NCBI RefSeq assembly: GCF_058153355.1
Contig: NZ_CM177019.1
Strand: one strand, 5' to 3'
DNA length: 64,000 bases
In this document: positions 1-11,711 of the stretch, in pieces
Position numbering within the stretch: the first letter of the stretch is position 1
Layout: every line of letters begins with the position of its first letter
The notes under the pieces: model-generated
Databases searched by the model: none
What the model was told of the DNA's origin: nothing
Seen by the model: the letters and a program-made list of their open reading frames with translations, nothing else
Made by a program: the position numbers and the translations under genes

Positions 1-116
1 AATTTATCTCTACTTACTCAGAGTACCGAACTTTACGGAAAATTCCGTAAGACCGCACCTTTTTGTGACGCCGACTACACTATTTCAATGAGATAAGAGG
101 CAAAGACAGGAAAATT

Positions 117-878
117 ATGCCCGATCAAACACAACAATTTTCGTTCAAGGTGCTCACCATCAACATTCACAAAGGCTTTACCGCGTTTAACCGACGCTTC
201 ATTTTGCCGGAACTTCGCGACGCCGTGCGTACCGTCAGCGCCGATATTGTTTGCCTGCAGGAAGTGATGGGCGCGCACGAAGTTCATCCGCTGCATGTGG
301 AAAACTGGCCCGATACCTCGCACTACGAGTTTCTCGCCGACACCATGTGGAGCGATTTCGCCTACGGTCGCAATGCCGTATACCCGGAAGGGCATCACGG
401 CAACGCGGTTCTTTCACGTTATCCCATTGAACATTATGAGAATCGCGATGTTTCGGTCGATGGTGCGGAAAAGCGCGGCGTGCTCTACTGCCGCATTGTG
501 CCGCCGATGACCGGGAAAGCGATTCATGTGATGTGCGTACATCTGGGCCTGCGTGAGGCGCACCGTCAGGCGCAGCTTGCGATGCTCGCCGAATGGGTCA
601 ATGAGCTGCCGGACGGCGAACCGGTATTAGTGGCGGGTGATTTCAACGACTGGCGGCAAAAAGCTAATCATCCGTTAAAAATGCAGGCCGGGCTGGATGA
701 GATATTTACCCGCGCCCACGGACGCCCGGCGCGCACGTTTCCGGTGCAATTTCCTCTACTACGTCTGGACAGGATCTATGTCAAAAATGCCAGCGCCAGC
801 GCGCCAACCGCGTTGCCGCTGCGGACATGGCGACACCTTTCTGATCATGCCCCTTTAAGTGCGGAGATTCATTTATGA
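117..878 (+). CDS. ybhP: Endonuclease/exonuclease/phosphatase family protein
   Basis: 253 aa ORF; length and position upstream of clsB match the K-12 ybhP-clsB-ybhN operon; overlaps clsB start by 4 nt. Confidence 0.85.
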
Positions 879-2116
879 AATGTAGCTGGCGCGAAGGCAA
901 TAAGATCCAGTTGCTGGAAAACGGCGAGCAATATTATCCCGCGGTGTTTAAGGCGATTGGCGAGGCACAAGAACGCATCATTCTTGAAACGTTTATCTGG
1001 TTTGAGGATGACGTCGGCAAACAGCTGCATGCGGTACTACTGGCAGCAGCGCAACGCGGGGTAAAAGCGGAAGTCTTGCTGGATGGCTACGGTTCGCCGG
1101 ATCTCAGCGATGATTTTGTCAATGAACTGACGGCAGCTGGCGTGGTGTTCCGCTACTACGATCCCCGCCCTCGCCTTTTTGGTATGCGCACCAATGTGTT
1201 TCGCCGGATGCATCGCAAAATTGTGGTGATCGACGCACGTATCGCCTTTATTGGTGGGCTGAATTACTCCGCCGAGCATATGTCCAGCTACGGTCCAGAG
1301 GCTAAACAGGATTACGCAGTGCGCCTTGAAGGGCCGATTGTCGAAGATATTCTCCAGTTTGAACTGGAAAACCTGCCAGGACACAGCGCAGCACGACGCT
1401 GGTGGCGACGTCATCACAAAGCGGAAGAAAACCGCCAGCCGGGAGAAGCGCAGGTATTATTGGTTTGGCGCGATAACGAAGAACATCGTGATGATATCGA
1501 ACGCCACTATCTGAAAATGCTCACTCAGGCGCGTCGGGAAGTGATTATCGCCAACGCCTACTTCTTTCCTGGCTATCGATTTTTGCACGCCTTACGCAAA
1601 GCGGCACGGCGCGGGGTGCGGATCAAGCTGATCATTCAGGGCGAACCGGATATGCCCATTGTCAGAGTCGGCGCGCGTTTACTGTACAACTATCTGGTTA
1701 AAGGCGGCGTTCAGGTTTTTGAGTACCGCCGCCGCCCGCTCCACGGCAAAGTAGCATTGATGGACGATCACTGGGCGACAGTAGGGTCCAGTAATCTCGA
1801 TCCGCTCAGTTTGTCGCTAAATCTCGAAGCAAACGTCATCATTCACGATCGTCATTTTAACCAGACGCTACGCGATAATCTGAACGGCATCATCGCCGCC
1901 GACTGTCAACAAGTGGATGAATCCATGCTGCCGAAACGCACCTGGTGGAACCTGACCAAAAGCGTGCTGGCATTCCATTTTTTGCGCCACTTCCCGGCGC
2001 TAGTGGGCTGGCTTCCGGCGCACACGCCGCGTCTGGCGCAAGTTGATCCCCCCGCACAACCGACAATGGAAACTCAGGATCGGATAGAAACTGAAAATAC
2101 GGGGGTAAAACCCTGA
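875..2116 (+). CDS. clsB: Cardiolipin synthase B (phospholipase D family)
   Basis: 413 aa; two HxK(x4)D-type motifs visible ([17 protein letters not shown]); synteny. Confidence 0.9.
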
Positions 2117-3072
2117 TGAGTAAATCACGCCCGCGCTGGCGCTTAGCAAAGAAGATCCTCACCTGGCTGTTTTTTATCGCAGTGATTGTGTTGCTGGTGA
2201 TCTACGCCAAAAAGGTAGACTGGGAAGAGGTCTGGAAGGTTATCCGCGATTACAATCGCGTTGCGTTGCTCAGTGCGATTGGGCTGGTGGTCGTCAGCTA
2301 TCTGATATATGGCTGCTACGACCTGCTCGCCCGTTTCTACTGCGGTCACAAACTGGCGAAGCGCCAGGTGATGCTGGTGTCGTTTATCTGCTACGCCTTC
2401 AATCTGACGCTCAGTACCTGGGTCGGCGGCATTGGTATGCGCTATCGTTTGTACTCCCGGCTAGGGTTACCGGGCAGCACTATTACGCGGATTTTCTCGC
2501 TCAGTATTACCACCAACTGGCTGGGCTATATTTTGCTGGCCGGGATTATCTTTACCGCAGGCGTGGTGGAGCTGCCGGATCACTGGTATGTCGATCAAAC
2601 TACGCTGCGTATTCTCGGCATTGGCTTACTGCTGATTATCGCGGTTTATTTGTGGTTTTGCGCTTTCGCGAAGCACCGCCATATGACCATCAAAGGGCAA
2701 AAGCTGGTGCTGCCTTCATGGAAATTCGCCCTCGCCCAGATGCTGATTTCCAGCGTTAACTGGATGGTAATGGGAGCGATTATCTGGCTGTTGCTGGGTC
2801 AAAACGTGAACTATTTCTTTGTACTGGGCGTATTACTGGTAAGCAGTATTGCCGGGGTAATTGTGCATATTCCGGCGGGAATTGGTGTACTGGAAGCGGT
2901 GTTTATCGCGCTACTGGCTGGGGAGCATACCTCCAAAGGCACAATTATCGCCGCCCTGCTCGCTTACCGTGTGCTGTATTACTTTATCCCGCTGCTGCTG
3001 GCGCTGATCTGTTACCTGTTGCTGGAAAGCCAGGCGAAGAAGCTACGAGCGAAAAATGAAGCGGTAATGTGA
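2116..3072 (+). CDS. ybhN: Inner membrane protein YbhN (UPF0104 family)
   Basis: 318 aa, multiple hydrophobic segments; start overlaps clsB stop; synteny. Confidence 0.85.
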   Translation: MSKSRPRWRLAKKILTWLFFIAVIVLLVIYAKKVDWEEVWKVIRDYNRVALLSAIGLVVVSYLIYGCYDLLARFYCGHKLAKRQVMLVSFICYAFNLTLSTWVGGIGMRYRLYSRLGLPGSTITRIFSLSITTNWLGYILLAGIIFTAGVVELPDHWYVDQTTLRILGIGLLLIIAVYLWFCAFAKHRHMTIKGQKLVLPSWKFALAQMLISSVNWMVMGAIIWLLLGQNVNYFFVLGVLLVSSIAGVIVHIPAGIGVLEAVFIALLAGEHTSKGTIIAALLAYRVLYYFIPLLLALICYLLLESQAKKLRAKNEAVM

Positions 3073-3075
3073 AGT

Positions 3076-3339
3076 TCAGTTAAGTTCTTTTGGTTTAAGT
3101 TCGGGATGCTGTTTATAGATGGGGTTCATGATATCGATTAACATGCGCCCCATAATTTCCCCGACGGCGGAACGATAAATATTAAGCTCAGATTCATCGC
3201 AAGCTTGCTGAACATATAATACTGACGCATCTAATTGAGCACCAATATTGAGCATTAATGCGCTGATATCTGCTGCCAGAGTCTTATCTTTGAACATTTT
3301 ATAAACCTTTTCAATTTCTAAACATAAAAGATACTGCAT
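3076..3339 (-). CDS. Hypothetical protein, 87 aa (AT-rich; may be the 3' part of a frameshifted gene with 3311..3679)
   Basis: ORF overlapping the end of the 122-aa ORF by 29 nt in another frame. Confidence 0.35.
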   Translation of the reverse strand: MQYLLCLEIEKVYKMFKDKTLAADISALMLNIGAQLDASVLYVQQACDESELNIYRSAVGEIMGRMLIDIMNPIYKQHPELKPKELN

Positions 3340-3679
3340 GTTCCATTTTATTACCTACGGGATAATTATCTTTTATTGCATATGTAAAATCACTTGTTTT
3401 GGTTATTAAGTTTTTTATAGCATCATCAAGATACTCAGGAACTAATGATTCAATATTTTCAAGATCACAACCAAGATCAATTATCTCTATTAGCTCTTTA
3501 TCACAATCATTTTTGTGTAAAAGCCTGGAAATAAAAGGTCTGAAAACTAGTAGTTCAGATTCATCTATAGTTATCGTGCCTTCTTTCAAGGAATGTAACA
3601 CTCCTGAAAGCAGTATAGCCATAAATTTATCCATATATTTATTATCGATGGTACAAACTAACTGCATGATATTCTCCAC
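3311..3679 (-). CDS. Hypothetical acidic protein, 122 aa (AT-rich, likely accessory)
   Basis: ORF in AT-rich segment between ybhN and the ybhM-like gene; no recognisable motif. Confidence 0.4.
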   Translation of the reverse strand: MENIMQLVCTIDNKYMDKFMAILLSGVLHSLKEGTITIDESELLVFRPFISRLLHKNDCDKELIEIIDLGCDLENIESLVPEYLDDAIKNLITKTSDFTYAIKDNYPVGNKMEHAVSFMFRN

Positions 3680-3725: not shown

Positions 3726-4439
3726 TTAAATATGAAACCGCGTATGCCTTTGCCAGACAAGCGTTATCGCTATTGCTGCAAGAATCCCAAAGAAGCTGAT
3801 AAAATAGTAATAGAGTGTTAATGCACCTGTAACAGCGCAACGAACCGGACTCCACAACTCTTCGCTATGGCATTTTCCTGCCAGTTCAAGGAGCTTATTT
3901 CGTCCATGCGAGATAATGCCTGACCATAAGACAATCATTAAGCAACTTATTACCCAAACAGGCCGTTCACTCATTAATGCGGTATTTACGCTGATCACCA
4001 GAGTCAACCCTGTCAACGTCATCATAATGATGAAACGGTGAGAACCAGGATCAACATTAAATAATAAACCGGCCTGCATACTGATTAAAAACATCGCGCC
4101 CGCAGTGCTGAACACAAGGATAATGGCAGATACAGGAACTAAACTAGCAACGACAATCGCCACCAAAGAGATTAAAAACAGATACATTACGCCTGCGATG
4201 GCGGCATTTATCTTGTTGATATCCTTACTTAAACCATACATACAAAGTAATAATAATCCTATGGCGACATACATTTGCGGTGAATCATATTTTGTTGCCG
4301 TAATTTCGAGATGCTTAGCTCCCCAGGCCAGTCCTGCGGTTGCCACCAAACCGACAGCGGTAATGAGCCATATGCCGTTTAATATCCTGGCCTCGTACTG
4401 AAAATCATTAGTTATGTTTTTTGATGAGTACGATTTCAT
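3726..4439 (-). CDS. ybhM: BAX inhibitor-1/YccA-like inner membrane protein
   Basis: 237 aa, polytopic membrane protein; length matches K-12 YbhM; position between ybhN and ybhL. Confidence 0.7.
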   Translation of the reverse strand: MKSYSSKNITNDFQYEARILNGIWLITAVGLVATAGLAWGAKHLEITATKYDSPQMYVAIGLLLLCMYGLSKDINKINAAIAGVMYLFLISLVAIVVASLVPVSAIILVFSTAGAMFLISMQAGLLFNVDPGSHRFIIMMTLTGLTLVISVNTALMSERPVWVISCLMIVLWSGIISHGRNKLLELAGKCHSEELWSPVRCAVTGALTLYYYFISFFGILAAIAITLVWQRHTRFHI

Positions 4440-4507: not shown

Positions 4508-5248
4508 CTACCACACTAAACCATTAATAAAGTCAAGAACCGTTACAGCAAGTCTAAAAAGGACGCTTAGGATACAGAAATAGAGTGTTATTGCCCCTGC
4601 AACAATACAGCGAAGAACACCTGAAAATTCAGAGTTGTCGGCAACACGGATCAAATCTTCCAGTGTTGTTGCTTCACAGGCAGCCGTAACGCCCCAGATA
4701 ACGACAGTCAAAATACTCGCTAACCATACGGAAAAACTGCTGGTAAGAATCAGGTTAACAACAAAAGCAATACTCAAACCACAGAAGATATATAAACATA
4801 ACTGTCTAACTGGTGGGATAGCCCTATTAATACAACAGCAAATCAGCGCCATTGTGGCAAACATCCCTCCCGTAATTCCCATTACCGTCACTATGCTTGA
4901 AAAGGTAAAAAGTCTGGAGAAGAGAAAGCCATTAAGTAGGATTATTAGCAGATAGACCAGACATGCGCCTGATACCTCGAGCCTTTTCAGGGCATCGTTT
5001 AACCAGAAACCAATTATTATCAGCGCAGATAAAGCGAAGACAAACGCGCCTGGAGATTCTAGTGAAGCAACCCAATGCAAGTGCTGAAATATCCAGGCAC
5101 AGCCTGCCGTAGCCCATACTCCAGCAGCTGTTAACCACCAAATGAGGAACAGCATTTTGCTGAGCGAAGCGCTTTTTTGCTGTAATTGAGTAGCAGTGGA
5201 TCGTCTGTTCAAATGCGTTATCTGCCCCTGAAATTGCGTAGTGGACAT
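4508..5248 (-). CDS. BAX inhibitor-1-like membrane protein, additional paralogue
   Basis: 246 aa; same hydrophobic architecture and similar C-terminal region to the adjacent 237-aa protein; lower GC than flanking core genes. Confidence 0.6.
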   Translation of the reverse strand: MSTTQFQGQITHLNRRSTATQLQQKSASLSKMLFLIWWLTAAGVWATAGCAWIFQHLHWVASLESPGAFVFALSALIIIGFWLNDALKRLEVSGACLVYLLIILLNGFLFSRLFTFSSIVTVMGITGGMFATMALICCCINRAIPPVRQLCLYIFCGLSIAFVVNLILTSSFSVWLASILTVVIWGVTAACEATTLEDLIRVADNSEFSGVLRCIVAGAITLYFCILSVLFRLAVTVLDFINGLVW

Positions 5249-5357
5249 AGTCTGGCATTTGCGGCGATTCAGTTCTCATGTAAATGAGCGGAATAGTCTT
5301 TATAAAATCCGAAAAAAAATCCCGACACATGGCCGGGATATTGATGGTGAAAAAGAA

Positions 5358-6062
5358 TTAACGGCGGTTGCCGAAGATCCTCAACAACATCAGGAACAGG
5401 TTGATGAAGTCCAGATATAAGGTTAACGCGCCAAGAATGGAATATTTGCGCAGGTTTGACGTGTCGCGGGTATCAATCTGCTCACCCATATTTTTCAATT
5501 TCTGAGTGTCATATGCCGTCAATCCGACAAAGACAATCACGCCGATGTAGGTGACTGCCCACATCAATGCTTCGCTTTTCAGCCAGAAGTTGACCAGCGA
5601 TGCCAGCACAATGCCGATTAACGCCATAAACAGCATATTGCCAAAGCCGCTTAGATCACGTTTGGTGGTGTAACCGTACAGGCTCATTGCGCCGAACATC
5701 CCGGCAGTAACGACGAAAGTACTGGCAATCGAGGCGGCGGTATAGACAATGAAAATACTGGAAAGCGTAAGACCCGTCAGCGCCGAATAAAGCATAAAGA
5801 GCATCGTCGTTACACCTGCGCTCAACTTTTGAATCATCGCTGATAACACAATAACCAATGCTAATTGCGCGATGATCAGACCGATTAAAAAGACACGGTT
5901 AGTGAACAACAGCTCCATCACGGCCGCGGAATTAGCCGCATACCAGGCAACAAATGCTGTCAGCAACAAGCCAACGGTCATCCAGCCATAGACTTGCGCC
6001 ATATAAGTTTGCAAGCCAGCCCGGGGTTGTACAATTGAATCAGAACGTGGGAATCTGTCCAT
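5358..6062 (-). CDS. ybhL: BAX inhibitor-1 family inner membrane protein
   Basis: 234 aa; synteny next to moaE. Confidence 0.85.
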   Translation of the reverse strand: MDRFPRSDSIVQPRAGLQTYMAQVYGWMTVGLLLTAFVAWYAANSAAVMELLFTNRVFLIGLIIAQLALVIVLSAMIQKLSAGVTTMLFMLYSALTGLTLSSIFIVYTAASIASTFVVTAGMFGAMSLYGYTTKRDLSGFGNMLFMALIGIVLASLVNFWLKSEALMWAVTYIGVIVFVGLTAYDTQKLKNMGEQIDTRDTSNLRKYSILGALTLYLDFINLFLMLLRIFGNRR

Positions 6063-6197: not shown

Positions 6198-6650
6198 CTA
6201 CCAGCGTTTTGCTGCCTGCTGATCGCTCTCCCGGGCTTCAACCCAGCGGTCGCCTTCCGGCGTGGCTTCGCGCTTCCAGAACGGTGCGCGGGTTTTGAGA
6301 TAGTCCATAATAAACTGCCCGGCTTCAAACGCACTGCTGCGATGCGCACTGGTGACACCGACAAAAACGATTTCATCGCCCGGCCATAATTCCCCGATGC
6401 GGTGAATCACAGTGACGCGCCCCAGCGGCCAGCGGTTACGCGCTTCATCGACAATTTCTGCCAGTGCTTTTTCAGTCATCCCCGGATAGTGTTCGAGGGT
6501 TAATGCTTTGACGCTGTCGCCCAGGTTATGGTTGCGCACCTTACCGGTAAAGGTGACTACCGCACCGTCTTCGTCACGCTCAGCCAGCCACGGGTACTCT
6601 TCTCCTACACTGAACGGCTGCGGGCCGACAACAATTTTGGTTTCTGCCAT
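6198..6650 (-). CDS. moaE: Molybdopterin synthase catalytic subunit
   Basis: 150 aa, last gene of moaABCDE; recognised sequence. Confidence 0.9.
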   Translation of the reverse strand: MAETKIVVGPQPFSVGEEYPWLAERDEDGAVVTFTGKVRNHNLGDSVKALTLEHYPGMTEKALAEIVDEARNRWPLGRVTVIHRIGELWPGDEIVFVGVTSAHRSSAFEAGQFIMDYLKTRAPFWKREATPEGDRWVEARESDQQAAKRW

Positions 6651-6651
6651 T

Positions 6652-6897
6652 TTAACCTCCGGTCACCGGCGGGAAGAAAGCCACTTCGTCGCCGTCAGTC
6701 AGCGGATGGTCAAAACTCACCAGCGTCTGGTTGACGGCAGCCAGCAATTTGCCATCTTCCAGCGCCAGCGCCCAGCGATCGCTCTGCGCAGCCAGATGTT
6801 GGCGTAACGCTTCAACGGTTGGGAAATCCGCAGCCACTTCGCTTGCATCTGTTCCCACCAACTCGCGCACCTGGGCGAAAAAAAGAACTTTAATCAT
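6652..6897 (-). CDS. moaD: Molybdopterin synthase sulfur-carrier subunit
   Basis: 81 aa from MIKVLFFAQ... ending in GG (ubiquitin-like carrier); ORF-track start is an upstream in-frame extension. Confidence 0.85.
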
Positions 6898-7375
6898 CCG
6901 CTTCCACCTTAAAGTCACCTGACTTGCCGCCGCTCTTCGCCAGCAAACGTACCGGACCAATTACCATATCTTTTTGCACCGCTTTGCACATGTCATAAAT
7001 GGTCAGCGCCGCCACCGAGGCCGCGGTTAACGCTTCCATTTCAACGCCGGTTTTCCCGGTCAGGCGGCATAAGGTTTCTATACGCACCCGATTGTGCTCC
7101 GGCTCGGCCTGCAAATTGACTTCAACTTTACTGAGCATCAGCGGATGACAAAGCGGGATCAAATCCCATGTGCGTTTTGCTGCCTGAATACCGGCAATAC
7201 GCGCAGTGGCAAATACGTCGCCTTTGTGGTGGCGACCATCAATGATCATCGCCAGCGTCTCGCTGCGCATGGTGACAAAGGCTTCGGCGCGCGCTTCACG
7301 CACGGTTTCCGCTTTGGCGGAAACATCCACCATGTGCGCTTCGCCAGCGGCGTTGATATGAGTCAGTTGCAACAT
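6890..7375 (-). CDS. moaC: Cyclic pyranopterin monophosphate synthase
   Basis: 161 aa; recognised MoaC sequence. Confidence 0.9.
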
Positions 7376-7377
7376 AC

Positions 7378-7890
7378 TTATTTCTTCAAATGTGGATGGA
7401 AATTACACGGACGCGTACGGGCATCCAGCTGCGGTGCGATGATATTTTCCCAGGCGGTACGGCACGCTTTGGTCGAACCCGGCATGGCGAAAATCAGCGT
7501 TTTGTTAGCGACGCCCGCTACCGCACGAGATTGCAACGTTGAGGTGCCAATCTCTTCGAACGACAACATACGGAACACTTCACCAAAACCTTCAACTTCA
7601 CGGTCGAACAGCGGCAGCAGTGCTTCAGGTGCCTGATCGCCTTCGGTCAGACCAGTACCACCCGTAATCAACACCACTTGTACATCGTCGCTGGCGATCC
7701 ACGCAGATACCTGAGCGCGAATGGCATAGCGGTTTTCTTTCACAATGGCTTTATCGACAACGTGATGGCCCGCGTCCTGCGCCGAGTCGCGCAGATAGTG
7801 ACCGGAGGTATCGTCTTCTTCACCGCGACGATTAGAAACCGTAAGAATAGCAATACGGGTCGGGATAAATTCAGTGCTTACCTGACTCAT
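7378..7890 (-). CDS. moaB: Molybdenum cofactor biosynthesis protein B
   Basis: 170 aa MogA/MoaB fold protein; synteny. Confidence 0.9.
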
Positions 7891-7911
7891 CTGATCTCTC
7901 CTTTTGACGTT

Positions 7912-8901
7912 TTAGCCGCCAATGTACGATAAGTTTTGCGTAATACCGGTGTTGTTTTGATGCAGGAAATGGGTCTGTTTCTTCTCCCGCAGCGCCGCTG
8001 AAATACGCGCTTCCAGCGCCTGTTGCTGGGTATCGTCTTCCAGCAGATCGCGCAGGTTAACGCCGCCTTCACCGAACAGGCAGAGATGGAGTTTACCAAT
8101 GGAGGAGACGCGCAGGCGGTTGCAAGTGGCGCAGAAGTCTTTTTCATACGGCATGATAAGGCCAATCTCTCCGGCGTAATCCGGATGACAAAAGACTTGC
8201 GCGGGACCGTCGCTGCGTTGACGTAATTGGTGGATCCAGCCGCGACGCAGTAACTCGTCACGCAGAACCTGACCAGAGATGTGATGCTTACGGAAGAGCT
8301 CGCTGCCCTCGCCCGTTTCCATCAGTTCGATGAAACGCAGCTGGATGGGGCGATGCTGGATCCAGTTCAGAAAGGTGTCGAGTTGGTGATGATTAACATC
8401 ACGCATCAGCACGGTATTGACTTTGACCTTCTCAAAACCGGCCTCAAATGCAGCATCGATCCCTGCCATGACCTGATTGAATTTATCCTGTCCGGTAATA
8501 GCATGAAACTGGCGAGCGTCGAGGCTATCGACACTCACGTTGATACCAGTAAGACCAGCATCACGCCAGTTCGCTACATCTCGTTCCAGACGGTAACCAT
8601 TGGTGGTGACCGCAATCTGGCGGATAGCGTCGTTTTCTCGCACAGCGGCGATGATATCGGTAAAGTCGCGACGCAAAGACGGCTCTCCGCCCGTCAGACG
8701 GACTTTTTCGGTGCCCAGACTGGCGAAGGCGCGCGTAACCCGGCGAATTTCATCGACGGTCAGAAAGCCTTTATTGGTGACGCCGCTCGGTTTGTAGCCA
8801 TCCGGCAGGCAGTAGGTGCAACGGAAGTTGCACACATCGGTAATCGACAGGCGCAAGTAGTAAAACTTACGCGCAAATGCATCAGTCAGTTGTGAAGCCA
8901 T
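7912..8901 (-). CDS. moaA: GTP 3',8-cyclase (radical SAM)
   Basis: 329 aa from MASQLTDAF...; CxxxCxxC radical-SAM motif (CNFRCTYC); ORF-track start at 8982 is an upstream extension. Confidence 0.9.
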
Positions 8902-9237: not shown

Positions 9238-10206
<969 letters not shown>

Positions 10207-10236
10207 GCGCCTGTGCCGGGGCAGAAAAATACGACT

Positions 10237-10284
10237 GTGACTATGGCGTTTTAAATTATAGAAGGCCATAGTCACCTTTTTTTG
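10237..10284 (+). terminator. Rho-independent terminator after ybhK
   Basis: Inverted repeat gtgactatggc / gccatagtcac followed by a T-run. Confidence 0.6.
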
Positions 10285-10380
10285 GCACAACCCCATTGTT
10301 AGCAGCTCATTTATCTTTCCACTTTCTGGAATTTAGTTTTGCTTCTTGATGTTTCTTGTGCCATGACTATTCTAATAATG

Positions 10381-11598
10381 TTATAATCCCCATGCTTTGG
10401 GAGCCACCGAATCTAAATATTTATCAATATGATGAGAACGAGTATAATCTGCTATATTTTTTGATAAAATGGCCGTGCAATTTAAACCAGAGCCTAATCC
10501 CAGTAGTACCGTTAACCAGTTATCCAGAGCTTCAGATTCAACAATCGAGTTTTCCAGTTCATATGCTTTTAGTAAAAGAGCAGCAGAGTAAATTCTGAGG
10601 ATTTGCGGAGAATTGTATTCCGTTCCTAAACTTGAAGCTGAAGAATATCTTGCGAACACGACAGCAAAACTTATCAGAAGCATTGCTTGTTCCGTTTTAT
10701 TTGCATTTTCCATTCTGCAAGCCTTCATTAAATCTTTATAATGGTTTCCCTTAATATTTAAACAAGACTTATACTTCAATAGTTCGCTAACATTCTTTTT
10801 TTGTTTTATCTTTTTATTTTTACTTAACATTTCGTAACCCGCACCTTCAATAGATTGCGCCTGCAATGAGTAATTATCTATGAGTTTCATAAGAGGCGCA
10901 AAAATTTCATTTAATTTTATTTGCTCATCAATACCATCCATTTTGGTTTGAGAACAAAAACTTTGTGATGCAGTGACAAATGGTTCGTATAGATCACCAA
11001 GCTGAAGGATTTTGAGATAATTTTTTAATAAAATATTATTTTGTGACCGTTTCCATGGGTAGGAAAACACTGGGAATTCGGTCATCAATACGGTATTAAG
11101 ATTAATATCTGCAAGCGAGCACACTTGTTCTGGTGCTGCATATAGATAAAAATGGTCCCAGTCCTTATTTTTAATAGTGGTATCCAACATTTTATTTAAG
11201 GCATTAGATGAAAGACGCATTGCACGATTATTTTGCTGTGCTGAAAACAATACGTACCAAGCATCATCATGATCTTGTCGTTTACGCCATTCAGAGAAGT
11301 CTGGATAATCATTTCCTTCAGTATAAGGTTTAACATCCTTATGTTGTAAATATGTTTTATAAATATTATATGCTTTTTCTGCCAATATATTATTTTTACT
11401 TTTTAGTGCCAGGTCAGTCATCATTACATATGCAGTACTAAATGATAACATTAATGTAGGTTGTTCTGTAAAGCGATCTAAATAATAATTAATCCTCTCT
11501 TCACTAAGATTAAACAAAAAAGAAGAAGAGATACAGCAATCAACTGTAATTAATGACAAAATAAAGTTATCAAATATATTTATATCATCATTTTGCAA
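10381..11598 (-). CDS. Hypothetical protein, 405 aa, in AT-rich island
   Basis: Long ORF in strongly AT-rich DNA absent from the K-12 ybhK-uvrB interval; no motif recognised. Confidence 0.55.
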   Translation of the reverse strand: MQNDDINIFDNFILSLITVDCCISSSFLFNLSEERINYYLDRFTEQPTLMLSFSTAYVMMTDLALKSKNNILAEKAYNIYKTYLQHKDVKPYTEGNDYPDFSEWRKRQDHDDAWYVLFSAQQNNRAMRLSSNALNKMLDTTIKNKDWDHFYLYAAPEQVCSLADINLNTVLMTEFPVFSYPWKRSQNNILLKNYLKILQLGDLYEPFVTASQSFCSQTKMDGIDEQIKLNEIFAPLMKLIDNYSLQAQSIEGAGYEMLSKNKKIKQKKNVSELLKYKSCLNIKGNHYKDLMKACRMENANKTEQAMLLISFAVVFARYSSASSLGTEYNSPQILRIYSAALLLKAYELENSIVESEALDNWLTVLLGLGSGLNCTAILSKNIADYTRSHHIDKYLDSVAPKAWGL

Positions 11599-11711
11599 TA
11601 TATCATTTAATCCCTCTGGTGGTCTGTTAGACGTATAGTATTTTGCTAAGCAATTAATTTCTGATACATCCTTTTTTAATTTTGCAAGGTCATAGATACA
11701 ATTTTTTGTAC

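Follow-up and report, generated by a model that had tools for sequence, protein, structure and literature searches.

An extra BAX inhibitor-1-like paralogue of the YbhM type in the strain-variable ybhL-ybhN interval of Escherichia

YbhL of Escherichia coli and YetJ of Bacillus subtilis are the canonical bacterial TMBIM/BAX inhibitor-1 (BI-1) proteins and act as pH-sensitive Ca2+ leaks, with a di-aspartyl pair serving in YetJ as the pH sensor or latch of the leak. In B. subtilis YetJ (BsYetJ), this pair is reportedly D171/D195 in the numbering published by Chang and colleagues in 2014. Another member of the family, YccA, is a modulator of the FtsH protease, while K-12 YbhM is an uncharacterized inner-membrane protein of the BI-1/YccA family. 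Our literature searches returned nothing functional on ybhM or ybhL, ybhM otherwise appearing in a table from a Salmonella mutant screen, and they returned nothing on DUF3969, on BI-1 in connection with immunity, or on YccA in connection with YbhL. Two described immunity systems also enter the comparisons below. SUKH proteins confer immunity to polymorphic toxins, and supernumerary immunity arrays without toxin genes are an established concept (Zhang et al. 2011, PMC3113570). [quoted passage not shown]

We analyzed a stretch of 64,000 nucleotides from contig NZ_CM177019.1 of RefSeq assembly GCF_058153355.1, here called the window, which carries three adjacent minus-strand genes between moaE and ybhN. 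A preliminary description of the window had read them as three BI-1-type genes of 234, 246, and 237 aa, the latter two poorer in GC than ybhL and diverged from each other, and one of them additional to the K-12 set. All of these observations hold. The 234-aa gene is ybhL (positions 5358 to 6062, minus strand), a canonical BI-1/YetJ-type gene that is the conserved anchor of the array and whose product is 100% identical in amino acid sequence to K-12 YbhL; it is followed by the 246-aa gene (4508 to 5248, minus strand), which we call X for brevity, and by the 237-aa gene (3726 to 4439, minus strand). These positions are exactly those of the open reading frames, and K-12 (W3110) carries only ybhM and ybhL at the same locus. 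Two further minus-strand genes complete the window's array: a DUF3969 gene of 118 aa (3311 to 3667; Pfam DUF3969, E = 2.5e-15), an accessory cassette that few genomes carry, and, closest to ybhN, a cassette for a soluble hypothetical protein of 73 aa (3076 to 3297). Conserved genes flank the interval, with ybhN (2116 to 3072, plus strand) bounding the array on one side and moaE (6198 to 6650, minus strand), the end of the moaABCDE operon, lying beyond ybhL on the other.

All three BI-1-like proteins exceed the gathering score of Pfam PF01027 (Bax1-I), set at 34.1 bits. In a Pfam search of the window's open reading frames, ybhL scored 212.1 bits (E = 1e-62), X 52.8 bits (E = 5.6e-14), and the 237-aa protein 67.8 bits (E = 1.5e-18), values that do not arise by chance. 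The match of X spans residues 34 to 233 and covers profile positions 5 to 203 of 207. Pairwise alignment of X with the window's 237-aa protein gives 29.5% amino acid identity, and each of the two is 23 to 25% identical to YbhL. GC content is 0.437 in X and 0.422 in the 237-aa gene, compared with 0.481 in ybhL. At third codon positions (GC3), the corresponding values are 0.42, 0.44, and 0.60, the moa, cls, and ybhN genes lying at approximately 0.58 to 0.67.

Which of the two divergent genes is the true ybhM had been left as a question, and ortholog assignment against K-12 settles this annotation ambiguity. K-12 YbhM shares 89.8% identity with the 237-aa protein but only 26% with X, whose identity to YbhM proteins overall is 26 to 30%. 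The 237-aa gene occupies the ybhN side of the array, as ybhM does in K-12, with the DUF3969 and 73-aa genes standing in between in the window; X lies on the ybhL side of ybhM and adjoins ybhL. By identity and by position alike, X falls outside the YbhM orthologous group, to which the 237-aa protein belongs by identity. The 237-aa gene is the ybhM orthologue, and X is the extra copy. Where the window has approximately 840 bp containing X, K-12 and strain 042 have an unrelated spacer of approximately 130 bp. We considered whether this spacer retains a deletion scar of X, and a sensitive BLAST comparison with all cassette types returned only chance 10- to 13-mers. The K-12 junction gives no clue to the direction of the event, be it replacement or a loss accompanied by filler sequence.

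X is an intact member of the Bax1-I family and belongs to a small, Enterobacteriaceae-restricted subclade that we refer to as YbhM-like. It is predicted to form a seven-helix membrane bundle like that of BsYetJ, and its AlphaFold2 prediction is of high confidence; a sequence search of the PDB with X gave no match. Alignment with BsYetJ shows that YbhL keeps both aspartates of the pair, as D185 and D218, within the motifs "YD" and "LYLDFINLF". X has E192 and C225 at these positions, the cysteine being replaced by serine in the common allele, and YbhM has G179 and Y212. Both aspartates together occur in none of the aligned YbhM-like proteins, and X lacks the conserved pair that marks a YetJ-type pH-gated Ca2+ leak. 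Because this pair is the sensor or latch of YetJ, the canonical mechanism should not be assumed for X. More broadly, the YbhM-like branch lacks the YetJ sensor residues, and annotations as Ca2+ leak or FtsH modulator should not be copied over to it. Several residues are nevertheless invariant out to the Kluyvera and Superficieibacter proteins, which are 36 to 39% identical to X: E192, R148, Q149, N165, W175, W185, and several Gly/Trp positions. The invariance of the six named residues argues for a residual function of X. Amino acid variation within X is spread over helices and tails, with no focus on periplasmic loops.

To assess how common X is, we surveyed 5,426 complete E. coli genomes. X is present in 749 of them (13.8%), in every case on the chromosome, and absent from the other 4,677, so K-12 and most E. 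coli do not share the three-gene arrangement. A 3.4-kb query of the locus was also covered to at least 80% in 749 genomes, and because the two counts are equal, we conclude that X always resides at this locus. The alleles fall into two classes, the window type in 12 genomes (95 to 99% nucleotide identity) and a type at approximately 92% nucleotide identity in 737 genomes, including SE11 and O104:H4. By comparison, ybhM is covered to at least 80% in 4,796 of the 5,426 genomes (approximately 88%), and about 600 more have fragments only. The pair formed by the DUF3969 and 73-aa genes is found in 39 genomes, with alleles as low as 73% in nucleotide identity. A second pair, made up of a SUKH-4 gene and a 152-aa gene, is found in six, always at the ybhL-ybhN locus and never beside a toxin gene. 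X is already present in databases, where RefSeq lists it as "Bax inhibitor-1 family protein" (e.g., WP_241232088.1 and WP_001299026.1).

A peptide-pattern scan of GTDB species representatives detected X-type genes only in the cryptic-clade Escherichia sp. MOD1-EC7003, where X occupies the same position, and on one contig of a Collinsella metagenome-assembled genome, whose 87%-identical copy is presumably Escherichia contamination. Relatives of X at approximately 40% identity occur among the same representatives in Kluyvera georgiana and Superficieibacter electus. As a separate observation, the ybhP-clsB-ybhN segment of the window (117 to 3072) reaches a best identity of 97.9% among the 5,426 complete E. 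coli genomes. This ceiling, together with the rare ybhM and X alleles, indicates that the window comes from an under-sampled Escherichia lineage.

Beyond Escherichia, the YbhM-like family remains small. HMMER, run exhaustively against 1.84 billion representatives, recovered only 13 clusters at E <= 1e-10, distributed over Escherichia, Kluyvera, Superficieibacter, Salmonella, Pseudocitrobacter, and Phytobacter. Nearly all YbhM-like genes lie directly downstream of ybhL, and in Salmonella, Kluyvera, Pseudocitrobacter, and Phytobacter such a gene directly follows moaABCDE-ybhL. The tree nodes that group X with ybhL-adjacent genes from other genera have weak support (35 to 50%). Tandem arrays can exceed the three genes of the window: four BI-1-like genes in a row (ybhL and genes of 246, 237, and 232 aa) occur in Escherichia loci L013, L017, and L018. 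Longer arrays follow ybhL in Pseudocitrobacter-like genomes (L020 and L021), and on the L020 contig three YbhM-like genes are interleaved with eight small open reading frames. The small open reading frames of these arrays match no Pfam or NCBIfam family, the sole match being a nonsignificant one to MafI (E = 0.006). At the ybhL locus of Salmonella enterica, the YbhM-like gene is followed by genes for two membrane proteins of approximately 185 to 203 aa, which are weakly similar to Sip4, at E = 8e-8 (32 bits) and 3e-5 (24 bits), compared with a family cut-off of 240 bits. This three-gene module recurs at 32 to 40% identity in a second island downstream of guaA, where its neighbors are TsiV, Sel1-repeat, DUF1266, and DjlB_C genes.

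We evaluated the age of X and the selection acting on it with pairwise Nei-Gojobori estimates from seven genomes (six for X). Between the allele classes and over the same genome pairs, dS is 0.14 to 0.17 for X, 0.10 to 0.15 for ybhL, and 0.12 to 0.27 for ybhN. Since the dS of X is comparable with that of the flanking genes, X has diverged together with its chromosomal surroundings rather than having been imported recently. No phage copies of X were found, and the only "plasmid" matches are to large non-mobilizable records of 55 kb to 1.3 Mb, which we interpret as chromosomal segments deposited under a plasmid label. X is an old paralogue, neither a recent duplicate nor a mobile insert. Its dN/dS of 0.28 to 0.43, calculated from 23 to 35 nonsynonymous differences, and that of ybhM (0.25 to 0.69) contrast with 0 to 0.03 for ybhL and 0.01 to 0.06 for ybhN. 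X and ybhM are thus under relaxed constraint, approximately ten-fold less constrained than their neighbors, with dN/dS still below 1. For a near-core gene, ybhM evolves fast, its product being approximately 90% identical in amino acid sequence between strains while that of the adjacent ybhL is 100% identical, and it is truncated or fragmentary in approximately 11% of complete E. coli genomes. It is also disrupted by IS5 in RR1/HB101 (PMC5379014).

Decay is visible in X as well. Across alleles that differ by approximately 8% in DNA sequence, the window and most carriers preserve the full 741-nt open reading frame, which is broken in others. Frameshifted variants occur as N-terminal frameshift fusions (clusters P0006, P0007, and P0011), IS-disrupted variants exist, and in strains 88-3493 and EC42405 only the first ~80 nt of X remain, joined to what is left of a ybhM-like 3' end. 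The common allele, at approximately 92% nucleotide identity, is interrupted by a stop at codon 5 relative to the window frame, its annotated start being the TTG at codon 13 (L002 and L017); consequently, the true start of X and its first 12 residues in the window are uncertain. Upstream, an intrinsic-terminator-like hairpin with a T-run (5319 to 5339, minus strand) stands just after ybhL, a feature conserved in both K-12 and the three-gene strains. In the window, no Shine-Dalgarno sequence was found before the ATG of X, and no consensus promoter was found in the 109-nt gap upstream of it. Judged from these signals, X is probably expressed at a low level on its own.

The interval between ybhL and ybhN is a modular array that holds up to three YbhM-like genes together with DUF3969, SUKH-4, and small open reading frames. 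Cassettes are present or absent among strains with sharp junctions: the window carries X, ybhM, DUF3969, and the 73-aa gene, K-12 carries ybhM only, and GF4-3 carries six of the seven cassettes, all except the 73-aa gene. Far from standing alone, ybhM belongs as a cassette to this strain-variable array; some Escherichia have as many as four BI-1-like genes in it, and other genera have longer arrays. Several of the cassettes are of kinds associated with toxin immunity. The SUKH-4 assignment in the array of strain 042 scores 27.2 bits against a Pfam cut-off of 25.5, and PGAP annotates the gene likewise. The window's DUF3969 gene has a GC content of only 0.29. A word-indexed homologue search with DUF3969 reached only Escherichia and Shigella. 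In Pseudomonas aeruginosa, a CdiA-like gene (DUF637 plus Fil_haemagg_2) stands 14 nt upstream of a 35%-identical homologue, with orphan deaminase and EndoU modules coming after the homologue, and a fragment of an E. coli homologue sits within an Rhs fragment. These positions, one of them the usual place of an immunity gene after a CdiA-like gene and the other inside an Rhs fragment, suggest that the DUF3969 gene of the window is probably an orphan polymorphic-toxin immunity gene. For the 73-aa protein, a homologue was found in Burkholderia, and Pfam scans of its unannotated surroundings were empty. Among all loci inspected, no toxin gene adjoins any YbhM-like gene, and neither X nor its YbhM-like homologues occupy the position downstream of a cognate toxin gene that is expected of an immunity gene. 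A search of PADLOC-DB returned no match for X, YbhM, or YbhL and only a spurious TnsC match for DUF3969 (E = 0.008), and NCBIfam returned nothing for X (E <= 0.1) or for the small genes of the window. No integrase, IS, tRNA genes, or repeats were found at the X junctions in the window.

Several other stretches of the window were characterized in passing. The moaABCDE operon (6198 to 8901) has the variable array directly downstream. Deletion of moaC slightly improves the survival of P. fluorescens under T6SS attack (PMC12669606); that the array lies downstream of moa is probably a coincidence. A low-GC island of approximately 4.7 kb (29 to 37% GC; window positions 10200 to 15000) lies between yvcK (9238 to 10206) and uvrB (14971 to 16992). 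It contains an open reading frame matching the C terminus of SopA/NleL-like HECT-type effectors (10381 to 11598; SopA_C, E = 7.5e-21) and, just upstream of it, a pentapeptide-repeat open reading frame of 154 aa (11712 to 12176), the two possibly representing one effector gene split in two. The island also contains a weakly SopD-like open reading frame (12222 to 12677) and two without a family (13161 to 14812). A second low-GC stretch (34 to 37% GC) occupies the end of the window (61000 to 64000), and a 314-aa open reading frame within it (61917 to 62861) gave no Pfam family.

Taken together, we consider it quite probable that X is an old, dispensable, YbhM-like membrane paralogue that is weakly selected for a conditional role. 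Trees, synteny, and substitution rates point to a tandem duplication beside ybhL as the probable source of the YbhM-like subclade, with fast divergence thereafter, although the low GC3 (0.42 versus 0.60) could instead reflect an old foreign origin. X would have sat at the locus throughout the divergence of its flanks, passed on vertically or by homologous recombination, while being dispensable and often lost or broken. Its product is most likely a seven-helix inner-membrane protein that, judging from its residues, would no longer act as a YetJ-type di-aspartyl pH-gated Ca2+/H+ leak. Weak purifying selection may maintain it for a membrane role that is conditional rather than housekeeping, putatively protection against stress or against membrane-targeting toxins. 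A recent origin, either by horizontal transfer as an island gene or by tandem duplication of ybhM, is very improbable. It would account for a GC content below that of the flanks, for the patchy distribution, and for the unrelated K-12 spacer with its lack of a recognizable deletion scar, but the dS of X equals that of the flanks, X holds the same position in MOD1-EC7003, the window junctions show no integrase, IS, tRNA genes, or repeats, no phage matches, and the "plasmid" matches are to large non-mobilizable records taken as chromosomal pieces; an identity of 26 to 30% to YbhM is likewise at odds with a recent duplication. A dN/dS of 0.3 to 0.4 would also fit a drift toward pseudogenization, and the translation signals are poor. 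A rival reading makes X a functionless relic, an old and decaying duplicate surviving by chance in a minority of lineages, which we regard as unlikely. Absence from 86% of E. coli genomes, the stop, frameshift, and IS-disrupted variants and the ~80-nt hybrid remnants (88-3493 and EC42405), the terminator just upstream with neither Shine-Dalgarno sequence nor consensus promoter, and a dN/dS about ten-fold that of the neighbors are all compatible with such decay. Yet the open reading frame has stayed intact in the window and most carriers despite approximately 8% DNA divergence, dN/dS is clearly below 1 over 23 to 35 nonsynonymous differences, E192, R148, Q149, N165, and several Gly/Trp residues are invariant to Kluyvera and Superficieibacter, and AlphaFold2 is highly confident for X.

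About equally likely as decay, and so also improbable, is that X and the YbhM-like clade are orphan membrane immunity or protection factors and that the ybhL-ybhN interval is a poly-immunity hotspot gathering immunity genes, without their toxins, that act against the polymorphic toxins of competitors, the BI-1-like proteins in that case neutralizing or tolerating membrane-targeting (pore-forming) effectors. The company these genes keep lends this proposal some appeal: a SUKH-4 immunity-family gene stands in the array of other E. coli strains, as does DUF3969, with its P. aeruginosa homologue 14 nt after a CdiA-like gene and its E. coli fragment in Rhs; the Salmonella YbhM-like gene precedes two weakly Sip4-like membrane proteins in a module repeated near TsiV, Sel1, and DUF1266 genes; and longer arrays follow ybhL in Pseudocitrobacter-like genomes. 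Supernumerary immunity arrays without toxins are established (PMC3113570), and the divergence among tandem paralogues, their patchy occurrence, and an elevated dN/dS would all fit genes in an arms race. This is guilt by association, however, since no YbhM-like gene adjoins a toxin gene among the loci inspected, and the literature on BI-1 and immunity yielded no toxin neutralized by a protein of the BI-1 fold. The Sip4 matches, at 24 to 32 bits, are far under the 240-bit family cut-off, X has no PADLOC or NCBIfam match, its amino acid variation is not concentrated in periplasmic loops, and its dN/dS is below 1. Were X and its relatives immunity factors, YbhM-type proteins would gain their first assigned function and membrane immunity factors a fold class new to them, and the interval would be an easily typed locus reporting the history of inter-bacterial competition; otherwise, X is an ordinary, slowly decaying accessory paralogue. 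On balance, we favor the weakly selected YbhM-like paralogue with a conditional role.

Set against the described systems, X differs from YbhL and BsYetJ (PDB 4PGR) in having Cys or Ser in place of the second sensor Asp, and from YbhL in its identity of only 21 to 23% and in the strong purifying selection acting on ybhL. YccA belongs to the same superfamily as X, and a YccA-like role as a pseudo-substrate or modulator of a membrane protease is conceivable for X; however, X does not match the YccA equivalog model NF007765 (cut-off, 353 bits), to which YbhL itself scores 23 bits. The ybhL-ybhN interval resembles poly-immunity loci (SUKH arrays, PMC3113570; Sip4, PMC12669606) in being a toxin-less, strain-variable tandem array between core genes, in which SUKH-4, DUF3969, and, in Salmonella, Sip4-like genes stand alongside YbhM-like membrane genes. 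It differs from them in that BI-1-fold proteins are not seen beside toxin genes here, and within the window only DUF3969 has toxin-adjacent homologues elsewhere, leaving an immunity role for X as conjecture. In comparison with K-12 YbhM, X is only 26 to 30% identical, lies on the ybhL side, occurs in 14% of genomes rather than in approximately 88%, and keeps an acidic residue, E192, where YbhM has Gly at the first Asp position. The two proteins otherwise share their Pfam family, similar length, locus, strand, low GC, fast relaxed evolution, and loss of the di-Asp pair, as fellow members of the small YbhM-like clade.
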